Source: a virus
Length of the DNA: 64,000 bases
Direction: 5' to 3' (one strand)
IMG/VR virus record: IMGVR_UViG_3300003323_000257
Location: 1 to 64,000 of that record
Below the pieces are notes generated by a model. The model did no database searches. It was not told where the DNA came from and saw only the letters and a program-made list of their open reading frames with translations. Position numbers and translations under genes: made by a program. Position 1 is the stretch's first letter. Each line of letters opens with the position of its first letter. This document shows, piece after piece, positions 47,205-59,668 of this stretch.

Positions 47205-47494
47205 ATAGGATTAGTTTGTGGCTACTGGCTCCCTTGCTTTTGGTAGGCTGTGCGGATCAACCAGTCAAGCAAAAACCTTTGGAAGACGTGGTGCTAGTGC
47301 CTGAGAAGAAGACGGTATCGATCCCTGACGAGACATTACGAGAGTGCGATCCTCTGCCAAAAATGGAGGAGCGAAAGTACACAGAAGCTGAAACGCTTGA
47401 TTTTATGCAGTCCCTGGTTACCAACCAATCCGACTGCCGCAAAAGGAAGAGCGACGAAACGCAAACTCTAAAGAAGGCGTTCAATAGTAAATAA
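47201..47494 (+). CDS. outer-membrane spanin lipoprotein (Rz1-like)
   Basis: Lipobox LVGC, Pro-rich, two further Cys. Confidence 0.7.
   Translation: MNRISLWLLAPLLLVGCADQPVKQKPLEDVVLVPEKKTVSIPDETLRECDPLPKMEERKYTEAETLDFMQSLVTNQSDCRKRKSDETQTLKKAFNSK
47485..47493 (+). promoter_or_regulatory. putative late promoter TAGTAAATA upstream of queD
   Basis: Embedded in 3' end of o-spanin gene. Confidence 0.55.
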
Positions 47495-47569: not shown

Positions 47570-48019
47570 ATGCATTATTCGACTAAGACGTATGGGCATG
47601 AGATCGGCCTATCCTGTGTATTTCGTCAATGGAGGGCTGAAAGCCATTGCCGTTTGGCCCATGGTTATGCACTTTCCTTTAAGTTCATATTCGCTGCTGA
47701 AGAATTAGACCACAGAGGGTGGGTTTGCGATTTTGGAGGACTGAAACCTCTAAAAGGTATTCTTGAAGACACCTTCGACCATACTTTCCTGGTAGCTGAA
47801 GATGATCCTAAGTTCGATGTAATAATGGATCTTGATCGAGTTCACGGTATTGCAAAAGTAGTGCCTGTCCCTGCGGCTGGATGTGAACGCACTGCCGAAA
47901 TGGTCTACGAGGTGGCAGAACAATGGCTCAAGGATGCAGGGTACAGTCCTCGCGTTCGCTTGGTATCTGTGGAAGTTTCCGAACACGGTGCAAACAGCGC
48001 CATTTACACGAAAGATTAA
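47570..48019 (+). CDS. queD: 6-carboxy-5,6,7,8-tetrahydropterin synthase
   Basis: STKTYGH...HCRLAHGY...DFGGLK...FDH...CE..AE...V.VSE...N.A. Confidence 0.9.
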   Translation: MHYSTKTYGHEIGLSCVFRQWRAESHCRLAHGYALSFKFIFAAEELDHRGWVCDFGGLKPLKGILEDTFDHTFLVAEDDPKFDVIMDLDRVHGIAKVVPVPAAGCERTAEMVYEVAEQWLKDAGYSPRVRLVSVEVSEHGANSAIYTKD

Positions 48020-48020
48020 C

Positions 48021-48377
48021 ATGGGAAAGAAACTAGTTTGGGTAACCTTTCAGCGCAAAGGCTTTCACTTCTATCCAGGTGCACCTAGTGAGGTAGCATA
48101 TCTGCAGGATCGTCATCGCCATTTATTCAAGTTCAAGGTGAAGATTGAAGTCTTCCACGATGACCGTGAAATCGAGTTCCACATGTTCCTGAACAAGATC
48201 GAAAGCTGGTACGACAGCGGAGCACTGGAACTCAATCATAAGTCCTGTGAAATGCTGGCAGATGATCTGCACGCCAAGCTTAACAAAGAGTATGGCGGGA
48301 CCGGCAGGCCTCGCGAGTGCGTTATCGAGGTGTCTGAAGATGGGGAGTGTGGCGCTGAGTGCCACTACATGGTATGA
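48021..48377 (+). CDS. dpdL: QueD-like T-fold protein, DpdL-type (candidate CDG decarboxylase)
   Basis: LQDRHRHLF = LxxxHRHxF signature; SCEMLA; VSEDGE. Confidence 0.65.
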   Translation: MGKKLVWVTFQRKGFHFYPGAPSEVAYLQDRHRHLFKFKVKIEVFHDDREIEFHMFLNKIESWYDSGALELNHKSCEMLADDLHAKLNKEYGGTGRPRECVIEVSEDGECGAECHYMV

Positions 48378-48919
48378 AAGACAGCTCCGCCGTAAAGGAC
48401 TTTACTGGCTTAAAGTTTCCGCCTGCATCGATTGAATACGCAATGTTCGAGGGCTTTGAGCAAGAAGGTCCGTTAAAAGGAAAGTTCACGTTGTTCATTG
48501 TAGGTCCTATGCCTTATGAAGATATCCTGGCTCAACTGTCCATTAAGGACTATGACCAAATTTATTTCGGTGCAGGTGGCCGCTTCGATTACCACCCAAA
48601 ATCTGTTGAAGTCGTTTACAAGAATATCAATTCGGACGTTATCGTTACTGTGGAGAATCCAGTAATAGATTTTGACTTGATGGACTCCTGCGAGAACTTA
48701 CATTGGATGTGCCCTATGGTCTGGCATGGTGAAGCTGTTCCGAATGCGATGGCATCTTTGGCCAAGCTCAGTGAAAAGCCACGCTACTATGATGACACCA
48801 TTATAGTGAAGATTGACACTGGGTTGGCCACCTATTCTGCTTACTACGGCGCTTTAAAGCACTCCAGCTATGGTGACTACTCTGCTGACAAGCTGATAAT
48901 GCAAAAGGAAAGACAATGA
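48374..48919 (+). CDS. conserved hypothetical protein of deazaguanine cluster
   Basis: ATGA-coupled both sides; F.G.E.EG...TLFIVG...IYFGA. Confidence 0.75.
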   Translation: MKDSSAVKDFTGLKFPPASIEYAMFEGFEQEGPLKGKFTLFIVGPMPYEDILAQLSIKDYDQIYFGAGGRFDYHPKSVEVVYKNINSDVIVTVENPVIDFDLMDSCENLHWMCPMVWHGEAVPNAMASLAKLSEKPRYYDDTIIVKIDTGLATYSAYYGALKHSSYGDYSADKLIMQKERQ

Positions 48920-50085
48920 AGATTTTTTACATGGGACTAGAGAAGGTAGAGTCTCGCTACAGTCATCAGCTCACTGATTGGAACACCTCGGAATTCGAAC
49001 GCCTAGGTGTACCTTATCGAGTTGTGACTGGCTCGGAAATTCCAGCAGTGCAAGGTCAGATCGTTAATGGTTCGGTTCTTGATGCACACGGACGTACCTA
49101 CTATGCGATGACTCAAATGTCTTCCTTGGTAGCGATGATGCAAGCTGGCGAAGTAACTGAAAACGATGTGGTCTTCTTTGAGGACATGTTCACACCGGGT
49201 ATCGAAAGCCTGGCGTACATTATGGCCCAAACACCAGATAAATATCGGCCACGAGTGTACGTTCGTTGTCTGGCTCAAACTATTGATCCAGACGATTTCG
49301 TTCATCGTACTGGCATGTTTGATTGGATGCGACATTTCGAACTAATGTTGGATTCCTTCATCACTGGTATCCTGGTGGCTTCTGAAGAAATGGTTGCCCA
49401 TCTTCGTATCGCAGGATTCAAGTCCAACATTTATGTTACAGGTCTCCCGTTCGGCAAACAGGAAGTTCGTTCGCGAGTACCTCACTTGAAGGCTCTGTCC
49501 GATCGCCCTAAAGTTGTGTCATTCGCTTCACGCTGGGACGATGAAAAGCAACCATTCTTCTTCCTCCAAGTAATGGATGCGGTAAAGCAGTTGGATCCCT
49601 CTATCCAATTTCAGATCCTTACTGGAAACAAGACACTGAAGTCCAACAACGAGAAGGCCTTGCATGCTGCTAGGTCGTACGATAACAGTTGGCTTACCAT
49701 CAAAGAAGGTCTGACCAAGAATGAGTACTATCAGGAACTGGCAAACTCACGCTTGCTTATGAATACCGCACTCCAAGACTGGGTGTCAAACACAATCTCT
49801 GAAGCGGACACCCTAGGGTGTATGACTTTGTTCCCTGCGTATAGGTCCTTCCCTGAAACAGTCGGTAACCGTCCAGAGCACCTATATCTGCCATGGTCTG
49901 TGGAAGATGCTGCAGCAAAGCTGGTTAAACTAATTAATCTGGAAATGACCCAGCCTGACATTGGTAAGATTTCAGATTATCAAGACCGCTCAATTGTGAG
50001 GACAGTGAAAGTACTAAAGGGCGGCCAATCATGGGCGCGCAATACCTTAGGTTACCGTCAGCACGTCGCACGTACCAAATTCTAG
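48916..50085 (+). CDS. GT-B fold (GT4-like) glycosyltransferase
   Basis: FASRWDDEKQPFFF...YYQELANSRLL...EADTLGC..L.P...SFPE. Confidence 0.8.
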   Translation: MKIFYMGLEKVESRYSHQLTDWNTSEFERLGVPYRVVTGSEIPAVQGQIVNGSVLDAHGRTYYAMTQMSSLVAMMQAGEVTENDVVFFEDMFTPGIESLAYIMAQTPDKYRPRVYVRCLAQTIDPDDFVHRTGMFDWMRHFELMLDSFITGILVASEEMVAHLRIAGFKSNIYVTGLPFGKQEVRSRVPHLKALSDRPKVVSFASRWDDEKQPFFFLQVMDAVKQLDPSIQFQILTGNKTLKSNNEKALHAARSYDNSWLTIKEGLTKNEYYQELANSRLLMNTALQDWVSNTISEADTLGCMTLFPAYRSFPETVGNRPEHLYLPWSVEDAAAKLVKLINLEMTQPDIGKISDYQDRSIVRTVKVLKGGQSWARNTLGYRQHVARTKF

Positions 50086-50091
50086 TAAATA
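50083..50091 (+). promoter_or_regulatory. TAGTAAATA motif overlapping GT stop codon
   Basis: Read directly. Confidence 0.5.
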
Positions 50092-50100
50092 GAGGTACCT

Positions 50101-50130
50101 AGGCTGAGCCAGTCAAGGCTCAGCCTTTTC
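50101..50130 (+). terminator. terminator-like hairpin
   Basis: aggctgagcc-agtcaa-ggctcagcct tttc. Confidence 0.65.
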
Positions 50131-50147: not shown

Positions 50148-50948
50148 ATGGACGCACCAAAAATTCGTAAATTCGGCATTATCGGTACCTCTTGTGCCGG
50201 TAAGACCACTCTGGCCCATACCTTGGTCGGCCGTCTTAAGTCATACGGTATCCTTGCTGATGGCTTGTTTAGCCAGGACCGGAAGTTCTCGTTTGATAAA
50301 AAATATATCGAAACAGAGGAAGCTCAGAATTGGATGATCTGCAATCTGATCGCGAAAGAGGTGGACCTGAGCCTACATGGAGACGTGGAAGTGTTGATCA
50401 CTGATAGGACTCCTATTGATCTGTTTGCCTACTACTCTCACCAACATAACACGCGATTGAGCGAAGCTTGCTGGAACTACGCTAAAGAGTGGGCTAAGAC
50501 CTACGATGCCTTGTACTTTCTGGAACCTCTTCCTTACCAGGATGATGGAAAGCGCCCATCGGATGATTTCAGGCTGGCTGTAGACGCGGAACTTCGTTTC
50601 CTAATTAAGATGATTCCTAACGTGTATCAGTTAGGACGGCATGAAGTTATGAATGACATCCTAAAGAGGATTGGCTTTAAAAAGCCTGGAGTGAAGATGG
50701 ACTTTACTCCCAAGGATGCTCAGACTCTGGCCAACCATATTCAACGCTCCTTGGTGGTCAAGCGCTCGGAAATAAAGGATGCACTTTCTGATTACGACGT
50801 GTGGATCTTAGCAGGATTGGACTTCAACATTCAATCTGTAAGATCCTATGCATCAGGTCTGTTTGGAACTTTCGTTCCCCTGGAAATCAACCTTGCTGTT
50901 TCTACGGAAACTCTAACTTTTGAATTCGACCGTTATGACCCAGAATAA
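50148..50948 (+). CDS. P-loop NTPase/kinase (NadR/AAA_28, TMP-kinase-like) with C-terminal extension
   Basis: GTSCAGKTT; ITDRTPID; YDALYFLEPLPYQDDGKR. Confidence 0.8.
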   Translation: MDAPKIRKFGIIGTSCAGKTTLAHTLVGRLKSYGILADGLFSQDRKFSFDKKYIETEEAQNWMICNLIAKEVDLSLHGDVEVLITDRTPIDLFAYYSHQHNTRLSEACWNYAKEWAKTYDALYFLEPLPYQDDGKRPSDDFRLAVDAELRFLIKMIPNVYQLGRHEVMNDILKRIGFKKPGVKMDFTPKDAQTLANHIQRSLVVKRSEIKDALSDYDVWILAGLDFNIQSVRSYASGLFGTFVPLEINLAVSTETLTFEFDRYDPE

Positions 50949-52359
50949 TAAAAGGCGGCCCTTTGGATACGTGTTGGCTGCCATAACTGCGCGCTCTCCA
51001 TCGTCTTTCATTGGCGTCAAATACGAAGACAACTCTAAGAAGCCGTATCTGTGGAAGCGAACACGCTTTAACGGATTGACCACTCATTGGACTCCTGATC
51101 GCACCATCTACTATGGCTCGCCTGGACCAAGGGCGAACGCTATTCCTACTGTTGACCTGGACGTAGTGTTTCCAATTAGCGCTCCGACAGAACCAGAGGT
51201 ATTGGTGAACGCCGGATTCGACTACGCTATGGCCTCTCCGCACCATGTTAGTGCTGGATCGGAGACCCGGAGAAACGATAAGGTAAAGCTGTTCTGTGAC
51301 TCAGGTGGGTTCCAGTTAATCAGTGGAGCCTTGGACTGGGTGGACATGGATGAATTGGCAGACACGTACAACAGAACCATCGATTACGGAATTGGCCTAG
51401 ACATACCTACGCCAGGTGAGCTACAGAAAGACTTCCTGATGCGTATGTGTGACGTGATGATCAAGAACAATCGCTATCTACGCAGCAAAGTTGTACCTGA
51501 AGTAGAGATTTATGACGTGAGTCACGGTAACACCTTACAGTTGAGAGCCAAGTTTTTGGATCGCGTATTGGCCGAAAAGAAGAAGGAACGTCGCGATGGT
51601 CAAGGATTGGCGATCGGTGCTATCGCGCAAAACTTTAAGGATGGCGGTCAGCGCCAAACTGTGGTTACTGGGTCGGTTAATCTCATATACACACTGTTAA
51701 AATCCAAAGGCCTGTACGAGAGATATCACGTATTAGGAACAACGAATTCGTTTTTTCAATTTCTGTACCACGTGCTTCTCCATTATGAAGTGGCCCCACA
51801 CATTACGGCGGACTCGACGTCCTACGTTTTGCCTGCGACGTATAATCTGATGATCGCCAACAAATTGGCTCCAGACCATTCCTTGTTATCGTTGGAGCTT
51901 CCAAAAGAGGAGCGCTCCTATACGTTGAACTGTAACTGTCCTGTGTGTTATCACGTAAAATATGCGCGTGAGTACCAGCTAATGTACATGACTAATACCT
52001 TACATGGTATGTATGCAACGGCCAACCAACGCGACCGAATCGAGGAAATAGCAGGAGAATACTTGAGGGGACGTATTGGACTAAATGAAGCGCTCTCGGT
52101 GTGTACCGGTGAACCTGCTTCGTCTCTCAAGGTGTACACAGCCATCGTAAAGTTTGCTATCGAGGCCGCCGAAAAAGGTTTTAAAGAAGCCTGGCTTTAC
52201 CATGAGAAAACATTGAATGGCTTAATGCGAGGTTCAGTCTCCACAGGCGGTTTGTTCAACAAAGGCACCAAGGCAATGTCTTCTAAGGCTAAGCGACTGG
52301 ACTCCATCCTTACTCGCTTTGAAGAGTTCCATGCAGCTAAAACAAAGGGACGCAAATGA
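50935..52359 (+). CDS. dpdA: TGT-fold DNA-guanine transglycosylase (DpdA family)
   Basis: FCDSGGFQ, LDIP, SHG, YHVLG, ADSTS, CNCPVC...H Zn site. Confidence 0.8.
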   Translation: MTQNNKRRPFGYVLAAITARSPSSFIGVKYEDNSKKPYLWKRTRFNGLTTHWTPDRTIYYGSPGPRANAIPTVDLDVVFPISAPTEPEVLVNAGFDYAMASPHHVSAGSETRRNDKVKLFCDSGGFQLISGALDWVDMDELADTYNRTIDYGIGLDIPTPGELQKDFLMRMCDVMIKNNRYLRSKVVPEVEIYDVSHGNTLQLRAKFLDRVLAEKKKERRDGQGLAIGAIAQNFKDGGQRQTVVTGSVNLIYTLLKSKGLYERYHVLGTTNSFFQFLYHVLLHYEVAPHITADSTSYVLPATYNLMIANKLAPDHSLLSLELPKEERSYTLNCNCPVCYHVKYAREYQLMYMTNTLHGMYATANQRDRIEEIAGEYLRGRIGLNEALSVCTGEPASSLKVYTAIVKFAIEAAEKGFKEAWLYHEKTLNGLMRGSVSTGGLFNKGTKAMSSKAKRLDSILTRFEEFHAAKTKGRK

Positions 52360-52847
52360 AGATACTCAAGGTTCGTAATCTGTACGGCTACCCTTCGTAC
52401 ACCGACGCCATTGTGGAGTACAGCAAGTCCATAGGAGCTTCTCTTATTCTGGATCGCACTTCTTTGTTGAAGGCTCCCAAGGAGTGGAGGATGTCCAATA
52501 AGCCAAAAATCTTGGTCGACTCCTTCACGGCCTTCCTGCAAAGCGAGGTTCCTATCATTGGCTACAAGAATGATAGAGGTGTGTATCTCAAGGATTCGCG
52601 ATTACCCCATCGAGAGCATTTGGTAGACAACGTATGTCAGGTGAAGATACCTTCCAATCTGAAGCGCGTTCCATCTAAAGTGCTGGCCTCCGCTTTGAAA
52701 GCCAAGGTCAAAAAAGACTTCCTGGACTCTATTGATCCTGAGGATCCTAACTATAAAGTGGTCAAGGGCATGATAACGATTCACCTCCCTGCGTCCTTAA
52801 AGGACCCATTCACCAAAGTAAATAAGAAGACAAAGGAGAACACATGA
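52356..52847 (+). CDS. basic hypothetical protein within deazaguanine cluster
   Basis: ATGA-coupled to dpdA and queE. Confidence 0.75.
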   Translation: MKILKVRNLYGYPSYTDAIVEYSKSIGASLILDRTSLLKAPKEWRMSNKPKILVDSFTAFLQSEVPIIGYKNDRGVYLKDSRLPHREHLVDNVCQVKIPSNLKRVPSKVLASALKAKVKKDFLDSIDPEDPNYKVVKGMITIHLPASLKDPFTKVNKKTKENT

Positions 52848-53647
52848 AAACCATCATGATTCAAAACCAAGATCGAAATATGAGTGCACGAGATTACCCG
52901 GACTCCACATTTCTACGTGTAACCTCAATGTTCCGAACCCTGCAAGGTGAAGGTCCATTCGCAGGCTTTCCAGCCGTGTTCCTTCGACTATCTGGATGTA
53001 ACTATGGTAGCAAAACGGATATGTGCACCTGGTGTGATACTTCCTTCCAATTTGACCATGGGCAGCTGCATACGATTGACCAGGTAGTAGCAGAGCTAAA
53101 TCATTTGGAAGGACGTCAGCCTTCTGACATTCTGGTAATCACTGGAGGGGAACCAACTCTTCAAAAAACTTTGCTAGGACTGATTTCAAAGGTATGGGCC
53201 AACAAATATTTCAAAACCATTCAAGTGGAAACCAATGGTACGCAGCCAAAGTTCTTTGAAGATGCTGAAGAGATGGGTCTCCTAGGTAAGGATAAAGTCA
53301 CCTTTGTAGTCTCACCGAAAGCTAACGAACGGCTCAAGAAATATCCTCAGGTTCACCCTAAGGTTAAATGGTGGGCGGATTGCTATAAGTTTGTCCTGTC
53401 TGCTGAAGAAGGTGACGCGCATCACGAAATTCCTGAATGGGCATTAACCGAGAAACATAAGCCTGTGTATGTAAGCCCTATGACAGTATACCTAAAACCA
53501 TATCAGGGTGAGGTGTCCTCTATTTGGGACGCTGACCTGGTGGATCAGGAACGCACCGCAGCAAACTACGCATACGCCGCTGCTTACGCCTTAAAACATA
53601 ACCTGCGTCTGAGTGTGCAAATGCACACCCTGACTGCCATAGCTTAA
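52844..53647 (+). CDS. queE: 7-carboxy-7-deazaguanine synthase (radical SAM)
   Basis: TLQGEG..AG.PAVFLRLSGC...CTWCDT; ITGGEP; ETNGT; VVSPK; LSVQMH. Confidence 0.92.
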   Translation: MKTIMIQNQDRNMSARDYPDSTFLRVTSMFRTLQGEGPFAGFPAVFLRLSGCNYGSKTDMCTWCDTSFQFDHGQLHTIDQVVAELNHLEGRQPSDILVITGGEPTLQKTLLGLISKVWANKYFKTIQVETNGTQPKFFEDAEEMGLLGKDKVTFVVSPKANERLKKYPQVHPKVKWWADCYKFVLSAEEGDAHHEIPEWALTEKHKPVYVSPMTVYLKPYQGEVSSIWDADLVDQERTAANYAYAAAYALKHNLRLSVQMHTLTAIA

Positions 53648-53656
53648 AGGACAAAC

Positions 53657-54325
53657 ATGAGTAAGACCAACGCTCAACTGGGACAGCAGATACACAAACA
53701 CCTGGAGGTGCTAGGTATCGAGACCCCTATGTTTGAAAATTCTCCGTCCGACCAGCTTAATATGATTACCAAGCTGGATCGCGTAGAGAAGCATTTTGCG
53801 GAGATCATGAAGTTACTCCAACTTAATCTTAATGATGACTCTCTAAGAGAGACACCAAGGCGAGTGGCAAAAATGTTTTTGAACGAGATTTTCTCCGGTC
53901 TTGATTACAATAATTTCCCTAAGTGCACCGTGATCGATAACAAGATGGGTGCTGACGAAATGGTGATCGAACGTAACATCACCATGAACTCCACTTGTGA
54001 ACATCATCTGTTGCCTATTATCGGGAAGGCACACGTAGCATACATTCCAGGTGCTAAGGTACTTGGTCTGTCCAAGATGAATCGGATTGTTCAGTTCTTC
54101 GCTGCACGTCCTCAAGTTCAGGAACGGTTGACTCTGCAAATTCATGCCGCCCTGTGTTTCATTCTTGAAACCAAAGACGTTGCGGTGGTAATCGAAGCCG
54201 AGCATATGTGTGTAAAGACCAGGGGCGTAGAGGACGCTTGCAGTGACACAGTGACTTCCAAAGTAAGTGGTGTATTCCGTAACCCAGTAACTCGTAATGA
54301 GTTCATCACCTTTACACGAAAATGA
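53657..54325 (+). CDS. folE: GTP cyclohydrolase I
   Basis: ETPRRVAK; STCEHH; GLSKMNR; RPQVQERLT; HMCV..RGV. Confidence 0.95.
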
Positions 54326-54843
54326 GCATACACATAACTGAACACGGCCGTGATCTGGTGATCCTAGATATCGACGGCTGTTTATTGGACTCGGACTCGC
54401 GTCTACCGCATTTGCTGGCAGGTGATCGTGAGACCTACGACTCTCTCCATCCCACGGATCGTACGTGGCCGGCAGGCCATGCAGTGTACCGCATGTTTCA
54501 ACGCCATCCAGACGTAACGGTGTTGTTCGTTACTGCTAGGCAGGAAAATGCCAGGCACTATACAATGGAGCAGCTTAACCGAGCATTAGGTAGCAGCTCT
54601 CCTGTTATGCCTTGGCAACTGCTGATGCGCCCTACAGGGTGTTCCGATCCAGATATTATCTTGAAGCCTCGTTTGATAGAGGAGGCTGGATGGTCTTTGG
54701 AGCGTATTCTTGTGGTAGTTGAAGACAGCGACGCCACTGTTGCTATGTGGCGATCCAAAGGAATTGAATGTTGGCAGCCGCGTTCAAGCACCCACAACAT
54801 AAACACAGTGCAGCTGGCAATCGATTTAAACACTAGTAAATAA
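54322..54843 (+). CDS. HAD phosphatase, polynucleotide kinase/phosphatase (PseT C-terminal)-like
   Basis: LDIDGCL; FVTAR; LLMRP..D...K; VEDS...[13 protein letters not shown]. Confidence 0.8.
54834..54842 (+). promoter_or_regulatory. putative late promoter TAGTAAATA
   Basis: Embedded at 3' end of HAD gene; RBS GAGG follows. Confidence 0.6.
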
Positions 54844-54879: not shown

Positions 54880-55845
54880 ATGACGACTGACCAAGATTTC
54901 AACATCGCTGATTTGAATTTTCTGACCGAGGGATCGGTTTTCACCCGAGAGGACGGTCGGATGGCTCGCTTCCTGTTCCTGACCAACCAATCTCTGTCGG
55001 AAAAAATGAAGCAGAAGTTTCCACCGCAAGTGGTTTATGCAGACGAGAACGATAATATTCTCAGCTGCGACATCGACCGTTTCCTGGCTAAACGCAAGTT
55101 TGTTAATGTCATTCCTGAGTTGGAAGAACGCCTGCTCAATCTGCTTGCTGCCACCTCTTCGGAATCTGAAGAAACTCTGGACCTGGACTCCGATGATGAC
55201 CAACTGATCATCGAGGATACAGAATCGAGTGAATCCCAAGAAGGCGATCAACCTGCAGGAGACGATTTCATTGACAGCGATGAGAAACCTGTGGTTACTT
55301 TGCTTGCATCTCGTGATGATCTGCCTGTGGTAATCAATGTGGACCAATTTACTCAAGCCGTGTCGTCCTATCAGCAGAATCCAGGTGTCGAACCAGGCAC
55401 GCTGCAGCACACGCTGTTTATCCGCGAAGAGCCAGGCATTAGCAGCGAAACCATCTACGCTGCATTTAGCCCTACGCACGCGGACAAGAACGTTACCTAT
55501 GAGTTTCAAGTGGAGTACGAAGGTGAGAAGCGCACCGTCGAATGGGATACTTTCGCAGGTATCTATCCTGCAATCTTCTTCGGAAGCCGTATGTTCCAAG
55601 TGATCTTCTACGGTCCGCGAGTTCCTGCTGCAAGCTTGGTGGCCGCCGAGGAGTTGGCTCAGGAAAACACTGAGGTTATTACCGCTGCACCTGACGTGGA
55701 AATTCAACAAGGTCAACTGGTAGCCATCAATGAAGCCGGTCAAGCGGTTCCGGCGCAAGCTATTTCTAATCCTGCGGCTCAACCTGTTCAAGTGCAGGTA
55801 CAGCCTGTGGCGCAGGTTCAAGTCCAAGTGCAGGCCGCACAGTAA
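54880..55845 (+). CDS. acidic protein with Q/V-rich C-terminal tail
   Basis: ...QPVQVQVQPVAQVQVQVQAAQ; monocistronic between promoter and terminator. Confidence 0.75.
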   Translation: MTTDQDFNIADLNFLTEGSVFTREDGRMARFLFLTNQSLSEKMKQKFPPQVVYADENDNILSCDIDRFLAKRKFVNVIPELEERLLNLLAATSSESEETLDLDSDDDQLIIEDTESSESQEGDQPAGDDFIDSDEKPVVTLLASRDDLPVVINVDQFTQAVSSYQQNPGVEPGTLQHTLFIREEPGISSETIYAAFSPTHADKNVTYEFQVEYEGEKRTVEWDTFAGIYPAIFFGSRMFQVIFYGPRVPAASLVAAEELAQENTEVITAAPDVEIQQGQLVAINEAGQAVPAQAISNPAAQPVQVQVQPVAQVQVQVQAAQ

Positions 55846-55852
55846 CATACAC

Positions 55853-55899
55853 AAAGCCCAGTCATGGTCCTAAGAGCTGTGGCTGGGCTTTTTCTTTTT
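55853..55899 (+). terminator. intrinsic terminator
   Basis: aaagcccag...ctgggcttt then T-rich tail. Confidence 0.75.
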
Positions 55900-58749: not shown

Positions 58750-59668
58750 CTTACTGACCGACCGTGAGAATCAAATCAAAGTTAAGATCATCGCTGATTC
58801 CGTGGCACCGAATGGTGCGCGAATCACAAGCTACGAACTGGAATACCATCGCTACATTCATGCTGAATTCATGACGCACCGTGTGTTCTCCAAGAATGCG
58901 GCATCGTCGCGAGCTATCCCTGCCGCCAAACTTCTTCAATTGGTGCGAGATGAACCTATGCTGCCTGTACACCTCGGTATGAATCAGGGCGGCATGCAGG
59001 CTCAGCAGGAACTTCCGCCTGACGTACAGCAACGCATTCTGGATGTATGGGAAGAACTGGGCGGCATCATCGCTGACAAGGTGGAGTACTTGGCCTCGTT
59101 GGGTCTGCACAAGCAGGTTGTAAATCGTCCACTGGAGTCCATGCTGCCGATCAAGGTAATCGCCACAGGTACCGAGTACAACAACTTCTTCGAACTACGC
59201 GATTCCCAATATGCGCAGCCGGAGTTTCGCGTCCTGGCGCACAAGATGCGTGTGGCACGTGACGAATCAACTCCTACTCCATTAGCATACGGCGAATGGC
59301 ATCTTCCATACGTTACTACTGAAGATCGCCTGTGGGCAAAAATCAATGTTAAGAATGTCGACCGTACTCTTTGCTGGCTTTCGTCTGCGCGTTGTGCCCG
59401 TGTAACCCACGCACTAGGTGGCCTAACTTCCAAGACAATTGAGGAAGAGATCGGAAAAGGCAAGGAGTTGTTTGCTGTCAAACATATGAGTCCGTTTGAG
59501 CACATTGCTACACCTGCAGACTTCAGTACAGCTACTGAAGATGATGTAAAGGCTCTGATTGACCACCTGGCAACACCTGAATCAACTTGTCCTGCTGTCT
59601 TCGACGTACGCAATCTGCGCGGTTGGCGCTCCATGCGCTCCTACATCGAAAACGGTGAACTTCAATGA
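58742..59668 (+). CDS. thyX: flavin-dependent thymidylate synthase
   Basis: YHRYIHAEFMTHRVFSKNAASSRAIP; HKQVVNR; FFELR...AQPE; SARCARV; HMSPFEH. Confidence 0.9.
   Translation: MSNLLTDRENQIKVKIIADSVAPNGARITSYELEYHRYIHAEFMTHRVFSKNAASSRAIPAAKLLQLVRDEPMLPVHLGMNQGGMQAQQELPPDVQQRILDVWEELGGIIADKVEYLASLGLHKQVVNRPLESMLPIKVIATGTEYNNFFELRDSQYAQPEFRVLAHKMRVARDESTPTPLAYGEWHLPYVTTEDRLWAKINVKNVDRTLCWLSSARCARVTHALGGLTSKTIEEEIGKGKELFAVKHMSPFEHIATPADFSTATEDDVKALIDHLATPESTCPAVFDVRNLRGWRSMRSYIENGELQ

Follow-up and report, generated by a model that had tools for sequence, protein, structure and literature searches.

The first 64,000 nucleotides of the IMG/VR virus record IMGVR_UViG_3300003323_000257, hereafter called the window, encode a putative GT-B glycosyltransferase (GT) at positions 48,916 to 50,085, among genes for making 7-deazaguanine and placing it in DNA. 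This location raises the question of what the enzyme glycosylates. To our knowledge, all glycosylated DNA bases are pyrimidines with a hydroxyl handle. The reading that we favor, with a probability of roughly 0.55, is that the GT is a dedicated glycosyltransferase of the DpdL-type pathway that decorates 7-deazaguanine, either in DNA or before insertion. The DpdL-type deazaguanine pathway itself is known; what is new is its extension by a dedicated GT, and there is a substantial chance that the gene encodes a new class of DNA base modification.

Linkage of the glycosyltransferase to DpdL and DpdA

The association of the GT with the deazaguanine pathway is conserved well beyond the window. Using profiles built for this analysis, we searched 80 IMG/VR loci with relatives of the GT (49% to 57% identity) and counted neighbors in the 57 loci that have at least 6 kb on either side of the gene. 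DpdL, the proposed decarboxylase of 7-carboxy-7-deazaguanine (CDG), and a DpdA resembling tRNA-guanine transglycosylases (TGT) both lie beside the GT in every one of these (57/57). Genes for FolE (55/57), GalE (52/57), QueE (48/57), a purine-type phosphoribosyltransferase (46/57), and GMP reductase (34/57) are also found nearby. Most of the 57 loci represent one T4-like clade with a family-B DNA polymerase and hence are non-independent. However, the GT-DpdL-DpdA combination is present in six lineages, namely the window phage with its family-A polymerase, the T4-like aquatic phages, Xanthomonas phages BUDD and X1, Burkholderia phage BCSR5, the PA5oct-like Pseudomonas jumbo phages, and Acidovorax phage ACP17. 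These lineages have different polymerases and at least three types of DpdA that cannot be aligned with one another by BLAST.

The order of the three genes is DpdA-DpdL-GT in Synechococcus phage BUCT-ZZ01, GT-DpdA-DpdL in BUDD and X1, DpdL-kinase-...-GT-DpdA in BCSR5, and DpdA-GT-DpdL in both the PA5oct-like phages and ACP17 (locus L093, 5698-8381). The GT is separated from DpdL and DpdA by 0 to 3 genes in BUCT-ZZ01, BUDD, PA5oct, BCSR5, and ACP17. The ACP17 ortholog (342 aa) was missed by tblastn and was found by structure (TM 0.76-0.85) and profile (E 1.8e-31). Identities between the window and BCSR5 are 67% for DpdL, 35% for a P-loop kinase-like protein, 32% for a HAD phosphatase, and 25% for DpdA; the window DpdL also matches those of ACP17 and phiST. 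The GT of the window is 51% identical to the cyanophage type, versus 24% to the GT of BCSR5. The combination of a BCSR5-like DpdL with a cyanophage-like GT indicates that these genes have been reassorted and that the linkage of GT, DpdL, and DpdA has nonetheless been kept.

The dependence is one-sided. DpdL is present in 29 of 50,697 phage records. These 29 include every one of the 17 records in which a true GT ortholog was identified, 15 through tblastn plus two from ACP17; of the latter two, KY979132.2 was profile-searched. Whole-genome profile searches of phiST, RHph_I1_18, Ahp1, and Bakedbeans, all of which have DpdL, found no GT. That the GT always occurs with DpdL, and DpdL sometimes without the GT, fits a GT step downstream of the DpdL product. 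In Rhizobium phage RHph_I1_18, dpdL is directly followed by a gene for a protein annotated as Appr-1-p processing (macro domain; L095, 9402-10226), which may represent another kind of decoration or processing step.

The GT family is essentially confined to phages. Among representative genomes of 185,579 prokaryote species only seven loci were recovered, all of them on T4-like phage contigs. These seven contigs (L086-L092), binned as Rickettsiales, Haliscomenobacter, Chitinophagales, Phycisphaerae, and others, have the order PolB-DpdA-DpdL-GT-GalE and are phage contigs that were binned into metagenome-assembled genomes. The tblastn matches in Xanthomonas phage PhiXhv-15 and in Ep032 have several N-domain residues in common with the family in a multiple alignment and are best regarded as a remote branch, found in a different sugar context. 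The PhiXhv-15 relative keeps R14, D90, D127, F128, W137, and E142 (L085, 3618-7704; L098, 4519-8103), and this phage has FolE and a gene annotated as GTP 3',8-cyclase beside its DNA polymerase, at a separate locus.

Reading frame, fold, and conserved residues

The 389-aa frame reported in the earlier note is present on the + strand, and its translational coupling to the gene upstream is evident from the DNA. The ATG at 48916 lies within AGGAAAGACAATGA, overlaps the TGA of that gene as ATGA, and is preceded by the ribosome-binding site AGGAAAG. More than 7500 of 8000 scored candidates are homologs, and an exhaustive search returned 818 clusters (50% identity) at E<=1e-3, so the gene is real and not a chance open reading frame (ORF). 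These sequences form a discrete family, distinct from the general GT4 universe.

An AlphaFold (AF2) model built from 54 relatives (pLDDT 95, pTM 0.92) has two Rossmann-like domains with an interdomain cleft, which is the GT-B fold. Its best VIA matches are sucrose-phosphate synthase (SPS; 6kih, Z 27.6), BshA (3mbo, 27.4), and MshA (3c4q, 27.2), with 328 to 345 aligned residues, followed by glycogen synthase, TarM, and PimA; overall the matches span Z 25-27.6 over about 320 to 345 residues. The GT4-like label of the earlier note is thus borne out by structure, but not by Pfam, in which the window GT reaches only 17.3 bits against Glyco_trans_1_4 (cut-off 27). The window GT has no match in PHROGs or NCBIfam. 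Among its relatives, 34 of 54 match Pfam Glycos_transf_1 at E<=0.01, and the BUDD and BCSR5 orthologs exceed the cut-off of that family (45.7 and 42 bits, cut-off 26.4).

In a profile alignment to MshA, R206 and K211 of the GT correspond to R231 and K236, the diphosphate-binding pair, and D288 and E296 correspond to E316 and E324, the glutamates of the EX7E motif. R206, K211, D/E288, and E296 vary little or not at all among the 54 family members and across the six phage lineages, and position 288 is Glu in four distant lineages, giving the canonical EX7E motif there. From the model and these residues we conclude that the GT is predicted to be an active, retaining transferase dependent on sugar nucleotides. 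A separate set of residues, R14, Y15, Q67, D90, A120, D127, and E142, is invariant in the N-terminal (acceptor) domain of all six lineages, which argues for a common acceptor.

The deazaguanine module

The window contains a QueC-less, DpdL-type 7-deazaguanine system, consisting, by sequence, of queD, dpdL, folE, queE, and a gene for a TGT-fold DpdA (Table 1), with genes for a family-A DNA polymerase and a primase upstream. No match to QueC (PF06508) was found in the record of 133,922 bp, which is about 57% complete (CheckV), and none above cut-off in the five complete GT-bearing genomes (BCSR5, BUDD, ACP17, BUCT-ZZ01, and PA5oct). The dpdL product fits the signature LxxxHRHxF, which replaces the QueD motif CxxxHGH and was used by Cui, Hutinet et al. 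(NAR 2023) to define DpdL as a proposed CDG decarboxylase (PMC10516641).

The gene at 50971-52359 encodes a member of the TGT superfamily of the DpdA type, as assigned from its sequence and model. DSGGFQ, D281-S282, and the zinc motif CxCxxC...H are invariant in its family alignment, its profile matches the archaeosine TGT ArcTGT (1iq8, E 3.6e-7), and the top 50 Foldseek matches of its model (pLDDT 86) all belong to the TGT superfamily, including tRNA-guanine transglycosylases, DpdA 7ui4, and Cap10. Pfam TGT (PF01702) does not match it. A search of viral contigs for related loci with this protein returned none; its homologs came from the protein homolog search. Prediction of a complex between GT and DpdA gave scores of 0.00, 0.41, and 0.00, which count neither for nor against an interaction.

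The earlier note correctly placed the GT between the dpdL-like gene and dpdA, with two further genes, the orphan and the P-loop kinase, interposed. The orphan most likely starts at 48374. It has no Pfam, PHROG, or NCBIfam match and no homolog across 82 related loci, and its Atlas model is poor. The stop of queD is one base ahead of the start of dpdL. Given these overlaps and the one-base gap, the four genes from queD through dpdL and the orphan to the GT make up a single, tightly coupled block. A megablast search of the cluster against cultured phages gave no match.

Table 1 Genes and sequence elements of the window
Feature	Position	Strand	Length, matches, and basis
TAGTAAATA copies	211, 15411, 25975	-	sequence
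TAGTAAATA copies	26057, 39753, 47485, 50083, 54834, 63728	+	sequence
TAGTAAATA, promoter-like copy ahead of queD	47485..47493	+	77 nt before queD
queD, 6-carboxytetrahydropterin synthase	47570..48019	+	Pfam PTPS 8.9e-17; phrog_2389 QueD-like 2.5e-41
dpdL, T-fold QueD paralog, proposed CDG decarboxylase	48021..48377	+	phrog_17812 4.3e-32; LQDRHRHLF
Orphan	48374..48919	+	181 aa; ATGA overlaps with dpdL stop and GT start
GT-B, GT4-like retaining glycosyltransferase gene (predicted)	48916..50085	+	389 aa; model, structural matches, conserved catalytic residues
TAGTAAATA over GT stop, then GC-rich hairpin GGCTGAGCC...GGCTCAGCC and TTTTCC	50083..50127	+	sequence
P-loop kinase-like protein (AAA_28)	50148..50948	+	Pfam AAA_28 4.9e-9; phrog_2107 'thymidylate kinase' 4.2e-12
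DpdA-type DNA-guanine transglycosylase, TGT fold	50971..52359	+	motifs, profile, model; alternative TTG start 50920
163-aa protein	52356..52847	+	no Pfam/PHROG/NCBIfam match; 4-nt overlap with each neighbor
queE, radical-SAM CDG synthase	52844..53647	+	Pfam Radical_SAM 6.9e-10; phrog_2076 QueE-like 6.4e-43
folE, GTP cyclohydrolase I	53657..54325	+	Pfam GTP_cyclohydroI 3.6e-62
HAD phosphatase, PNKP type	54322..54843	+	Pfam HAD_PNKP 2e-14

The kinase and HAD phosphatase of the window have their BCSR5 counterparts in a gene adjoining dpdL (L084, 4245-5171) and in a gene of the same cluster (L084, 13214-13729), respectively. In phiST, a P-loop ATPase (AAA_18; L094, 6299-6796) lies between DpdL and DpdA3, a position like that of the window kinase; the kinase has no BLAST similarity to this protein, gp041. 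The kinase/phosphatase pair may be an unrecognized part of DpdL-type systems, and together with the phiST ATPase it hints at a phosphorylated intermediate.

The motif TAGTAAATA occurs nine times in the window, versus 0.34 expected. Each copy precedes a block of genes and lies on the strand that is coding there. Similar to the T4 late TATAAATA, the motif is probably a promoter element of the phage. Near 26 kb both the AT skew and the motif change strand, consistent with transcription diverging from that point. The element that spans the GT stop probably marks a boundary between transcription units, with the GT closing the first unit of the module and the kinase on the other side. A strong hairpin of 16 pairs followed by a T run (55853-55891), like an intrinsic terminator, lies downstream of the module, after an ORF at 54880-55845.

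Proposed route to a sugar-bearing deazapurine

The fold of the GT, its conserved catalytic residues, the identities of its neighbors, and its linkage to them are direct observations, from which we infer the acceptor, the atom modified, the sugar, and the timing of transfer. FolE, QueD, and QueE would convert GTP to CDG, by established chemistry, and DpdL would decarboxylate CDG to 7-deazaguanine, as has been proposed but not validated. The TGT-fold DpdA, going by its family membership, would exchange guanine in the phage DNA for 7-deazaguanine. The GT would then use a UDP-sugar to add a hexose to the deazaguanine, yielding a deazapurine with a sugar attached, which would protect the DNA against nucleases. 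As the pairing recurs in at least six unrelated phage groups, a purine with a sugar attached is probably present in the DNA of these phages. The restriction behavior of PA5oct, in which the GT lies between DpdA and DpdL, is counted in favor of this route, as its DNA resists cutting at several G-containing restriction sites; the modification in that phage was not determined chemically (PMC12191111).

Transfer after insertion, in the major groove of the DNA, is favored over transfer to the free base or nucleotide by about 60:40, based on the analogy with known phage DNA glycosyltransferases and DpdM and on the position of the cluster among replication genes. Since 7-deazaguanine lacks a hydroxyl handle, an unusual linkage would be expected, either a C- or N-glycoside or one formed via an unrecognized intermediate. 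The sugar could be attached to the nucleophilic pyrrole carbon C7 or C8, to a ring or exocyclic nitrogen, or to such an intermediate, and we know of no precedent for any of these among retaining GT4 enzymes. Our tentative proposal for the product, which we give a little less than an even chance, is a hexose on 7-deazaguanine, galactose or glucose in the GalE-linked clade and N-acetylglucosamine or glucosamine in phages with a deacetylase, possibly C-glycosidic at C7/C8. A full-text literature search found no paper on this enzyme or on glycosylated deazaguanine in DNA.

Genes for supplying or tailoring a sugar accompany the GT in other phages. In the T4-like clade, GalE is encoded immediately 3' of the GT in the 52 loci that have it and is identified at equivalog level (TIGR01179, 333.7 bits, cut-off 262.3). 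Upstream of the GT, BCSR5 has genes for a PAPS-reductase-like PP-loop protein, a PIG-L deacetylase-like protein, and a small protein (L084, 5155-6993), and BUDD has homologs of the same three genes in the same position (L002, 5374-6947), of which the PIG-L homolog has no Pfam match of its own. By analogy, this set suggests the logic of MshA/MshB and BshA/BshB, in which transfer of N-acetylglucosamine would be followed by de-N-acetylation and perhaps acylation. The GalE and deacetylase partners argue that the GT does move a sugar, that this sugar is retained in the final product, and that it is not the same in all clades. Neither partner is encoded by the window phage, which would have to draw on host UDP-sugars.

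In a locus typical of about 50 T4-like ones (L029, 9106-16742), the GT is followed by GalE, FolE, and GMP reductase (GalE and GMP reductase both at equivalog level), and further by a xanthine/guanine-type phosphoribosyltransferase, a YhhQ-type preQ0/preQ1 transporter, and QueE. This gene set recalls tubercidin and toyocamycin synthesis, an analogy that suggests deazapurine chemistry at the nucleotide level.

Weighing the acceptor

Several points weigh against the decoration of 7-deazaguanine. We know of no chemistry for glycosylating this base, which offers no oxygen or nitrogen handle at C7, and the known GT4 enzymes use oxygen, sulfur, or selenium nucleophiles. The GT family is acidic, with a median isoelectric point of 5.7 and a net charge of about -6, and the enzymes closest to it in structure have small-molecule substrates. 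Neither feature is typical of a DNA-binding enzyme; together they favor a small-molecule acceptor. The top 50 PDB matches of the GT model include neither the alpha- nor the beta-glucosyltransferase of T4 (AGT and BGT), and the comparison with these two enzymes that the earlier note had called for gave nothing specific, as the closest folds are GT4 enzymes acting on small molecules. A BFVD entry named 'DNA alpha-GT', from cyanophage S-TIM5, ranks only 39th, with TM 0.50. The concentration of loci in one T4-like clade reduces the linkage to about six independent observations, not 80, and the distant relative in PhiXhv-15 lies in a sugar cluster where tblastn detects no DpdL. Finally, the record is only about 57% complete.

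If an enzyme encoded outside the window produced a hydroxylated DNA pyrimidine (5-hydroxymethylcytosine, 5-hydroxymethyluracil, or 5-hydroxycytosine), the GT could act on that base, and its position in the cluster would reflect no more than an incidental grouping of genes for DNA modification. All characterized phage DNA glycosyltransferases use hydroxylated pyrimidine handles, and the statement in the earlier note that these are the hydroxymethylated bases holds for those two but is outdated, in that 5-hydroxycytosine is also an acceptor, by a route that needs a ThyA homolog (PMC13326640). Consistent with the earlier note, which saw no hydroxymethylase in the window and named one elsewhere in the genome as grounds for refutation, the ThyA family (PF00303) was found neither in the window nor in the whole 133,922-bp record, incomplete as it is, nor in the complete genomes of BCSR5, BUDD, ACP17, and BUCT-ZZ01. 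PA5oct is the only one of the five complete GT-bearing genomes with a ThyA homolog. A search for Tet/JBP (PF12851) gave no match, but the control genomes gave none either. The ThyX that had been taken as a sign of normal dTMP is only a marginal match (24.3 bits, 58838-59257). An incidental position does not fit linkage specifically to DpdL and DpdA in every lineage, and we regard a pyrimidine acceptor as the least probable of the explanations, one that we hardly expect. The placement of the GT in a deazaguanine module without a pyrimidine handle, as originally suggested, is strongly supported by the six-lineage linkage and by the lack of ThyA here and in four of the five complete GT-bearing genomes; the deazapurine acceptor is something that we, too, infer.

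Another alternative is that the GT glycosylates a soluble pterin or deazapurine metabolite, like the cyanobacterial tetrahydrobiopterin glucosyltransferase BGluT, with a product that never enters DNA. FolE and the PTPS-like T-fold proteins QueD and DpdL would then feed the glycosylated small molecule, and FolE and a PTPS-fold protein are indeed the most constant neighbors of the GT, whose acidity is also that of a small-molecule enzyme. BGluT structures match the GT model with VIA Z 24.2-24.5 (Foldseek rank 48). However, they are no closer than dozens of other GT4 enzymes, with more than 30 GT4 entries above them and a top Z of 27.6. QueE, which makes CDG and not a pterin, is usually present, and each of the 57 full loci also encodes a transglycosylase of the DNA or tRNA type. 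The clusters lie among replication genes, and their hosts include Pseudomonas, Burkholderia, and Xanthomonas. This is the foremost of the alternatives, but still an unlikely one. A target unrelated to DNA, such as a protein, the host envelope, or a polysaccharide, with the GT acting as a moron or in superinfection exclusion, is in keeping with the fact that most GT4 enzymes build glycoconjugates, with the proposal that GT clusters of cyanophages remodel surface polysaccharides (PMC7824862), and with the genes beside the distant PhiXhv-15 relative, which encode GlmS, a PIG-L deacetylase, and a GFO/IDH/MocA oxidoreductase. Such a role is very doubtful given the translational coupling of the GT within the queD-dpdL operon and the strict synteny with DpdL and DpdA over lineages with different hosts and envelopes; moreover, the GT is the only gene with a GT1 domain in the record, where no other polysaccharide genes were found.

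The GT might instead be a helper in making or inserting 7-deazaguanine, by forming a short-lived glycosyl intermediate or by scaffolding DpdL or DpdA, so that the final base would be the plain 7-deazaguanine deoxynucleoside (dDG). When dpdL and dpdA of ACP17 were co-expressed in Escherichia coli no dDG was formed, and the authors suspected missing enzymes (PMC10516641); the ACP17 GT sits exactly between the dpdA-like gene and dpdL, the pair that was co-expressed. On the other hand, phiST replaces its guanine fully with dDG without any GT, though its reconstitution in E. coli failed too, and the GalE and deacetylase partners suggest that the sugar is retained. We consider a helper role quite improbable and retain the decoration of 7-deazaguanine as the preferred reading.

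Significance

If the GT decorates 7-deazaguanine in DNA, this would be the first case in natural DNA of a purine-type base with a sugar attached, extending DNA glycosylation to purine analogues, and the formation of such a base would be a new type of reaction for a retaining GT4 enzyme. A sugar on 7-deazaguanine would add a protective layer that could explain the resistance to restriction enzymes of phages like PA5oct, and the GT between dpdA and dpdL of ACP17 may explain the failed reconstitution of that pair. The GT family has thousands of members in aquatic viral metagenomes, so the modification could be common in nature. The reading is directly testable in the cultured phages that carry the GT, namely PA5oct, ACP17, BCSR5, BUDD/X1, and BUCT-ZZ01.

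Comparison with known systems

Like the T4 alpha- and beta-glucosyltransferases and other phage DNA glycosyltransferases, the window GT is phage-encoded and linked to base modification, with a GT-B fold and predicted use of UDP-sugars, and the expected role is the same, protection from nucleases. Unlike those systems, the window has no hydroxylated pyrimidine pathway, the structure of its GT is nearer to GT4 small-molecule enzymes, and sugar transfer would be to a purine analogue that offers no hydroxyl. The best structural matches (Z about 27) include MshA from mycothiol synthesis and BshA from bacillithiol synthesis, which share the R/K pair and E(D)X7E with the GT, and the pairing of a GT with a PIG-L deacetylase-like gene in BCSR5 (with its BUDD homolog) parallels MshA-MshB and BshA-BshB. 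However, identity to the GT is only 10% to 13%, the GT has its own N-domain invariants, and its context is DNA modification and not thiol synthesis.

QTMAN (GTDC1) is a GT4-type mannosyltransferase of queuosine in vertebrate tRNA that uses the cyclopentenediol hydroxyl. It provides the closest functional analogy, the addition of a sugar to a 7-deazaguanine derivative in a nucleic acid, although dDG lacks that hydroxyl. The resemblance of the GT to QTMAN is functional only and finds no support in sequence, as QTMAN_N (PF12038) matches neither the genome (E<=1) nor any of 54 family members (E<=0.01).

A close counterpart of the window system is that of phiST, the only chemically characterized DpdL-type example, in which all dG is replaced by plain dDG (302,000 per 10^6 nucleotides; PMC10516641). 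Its set of FolE, QueD, QueE, DpdL, and DpdA3 without QueC is the same core beside replication genes, and both have an LxxxHRHxF DpdL, a TGT-fold transglycosylase, and a P-loop ATPase or kinase in the region. The transglycosylases differ, as the window DpdA is 462 aa and phiST gp042 is 259 aa, with no BLAST alignment between them. Whereas phiST has no member of the GT family and contains plain dDG, the window adds to the shared core the GT, the orphan, and the HAD phosphatase.

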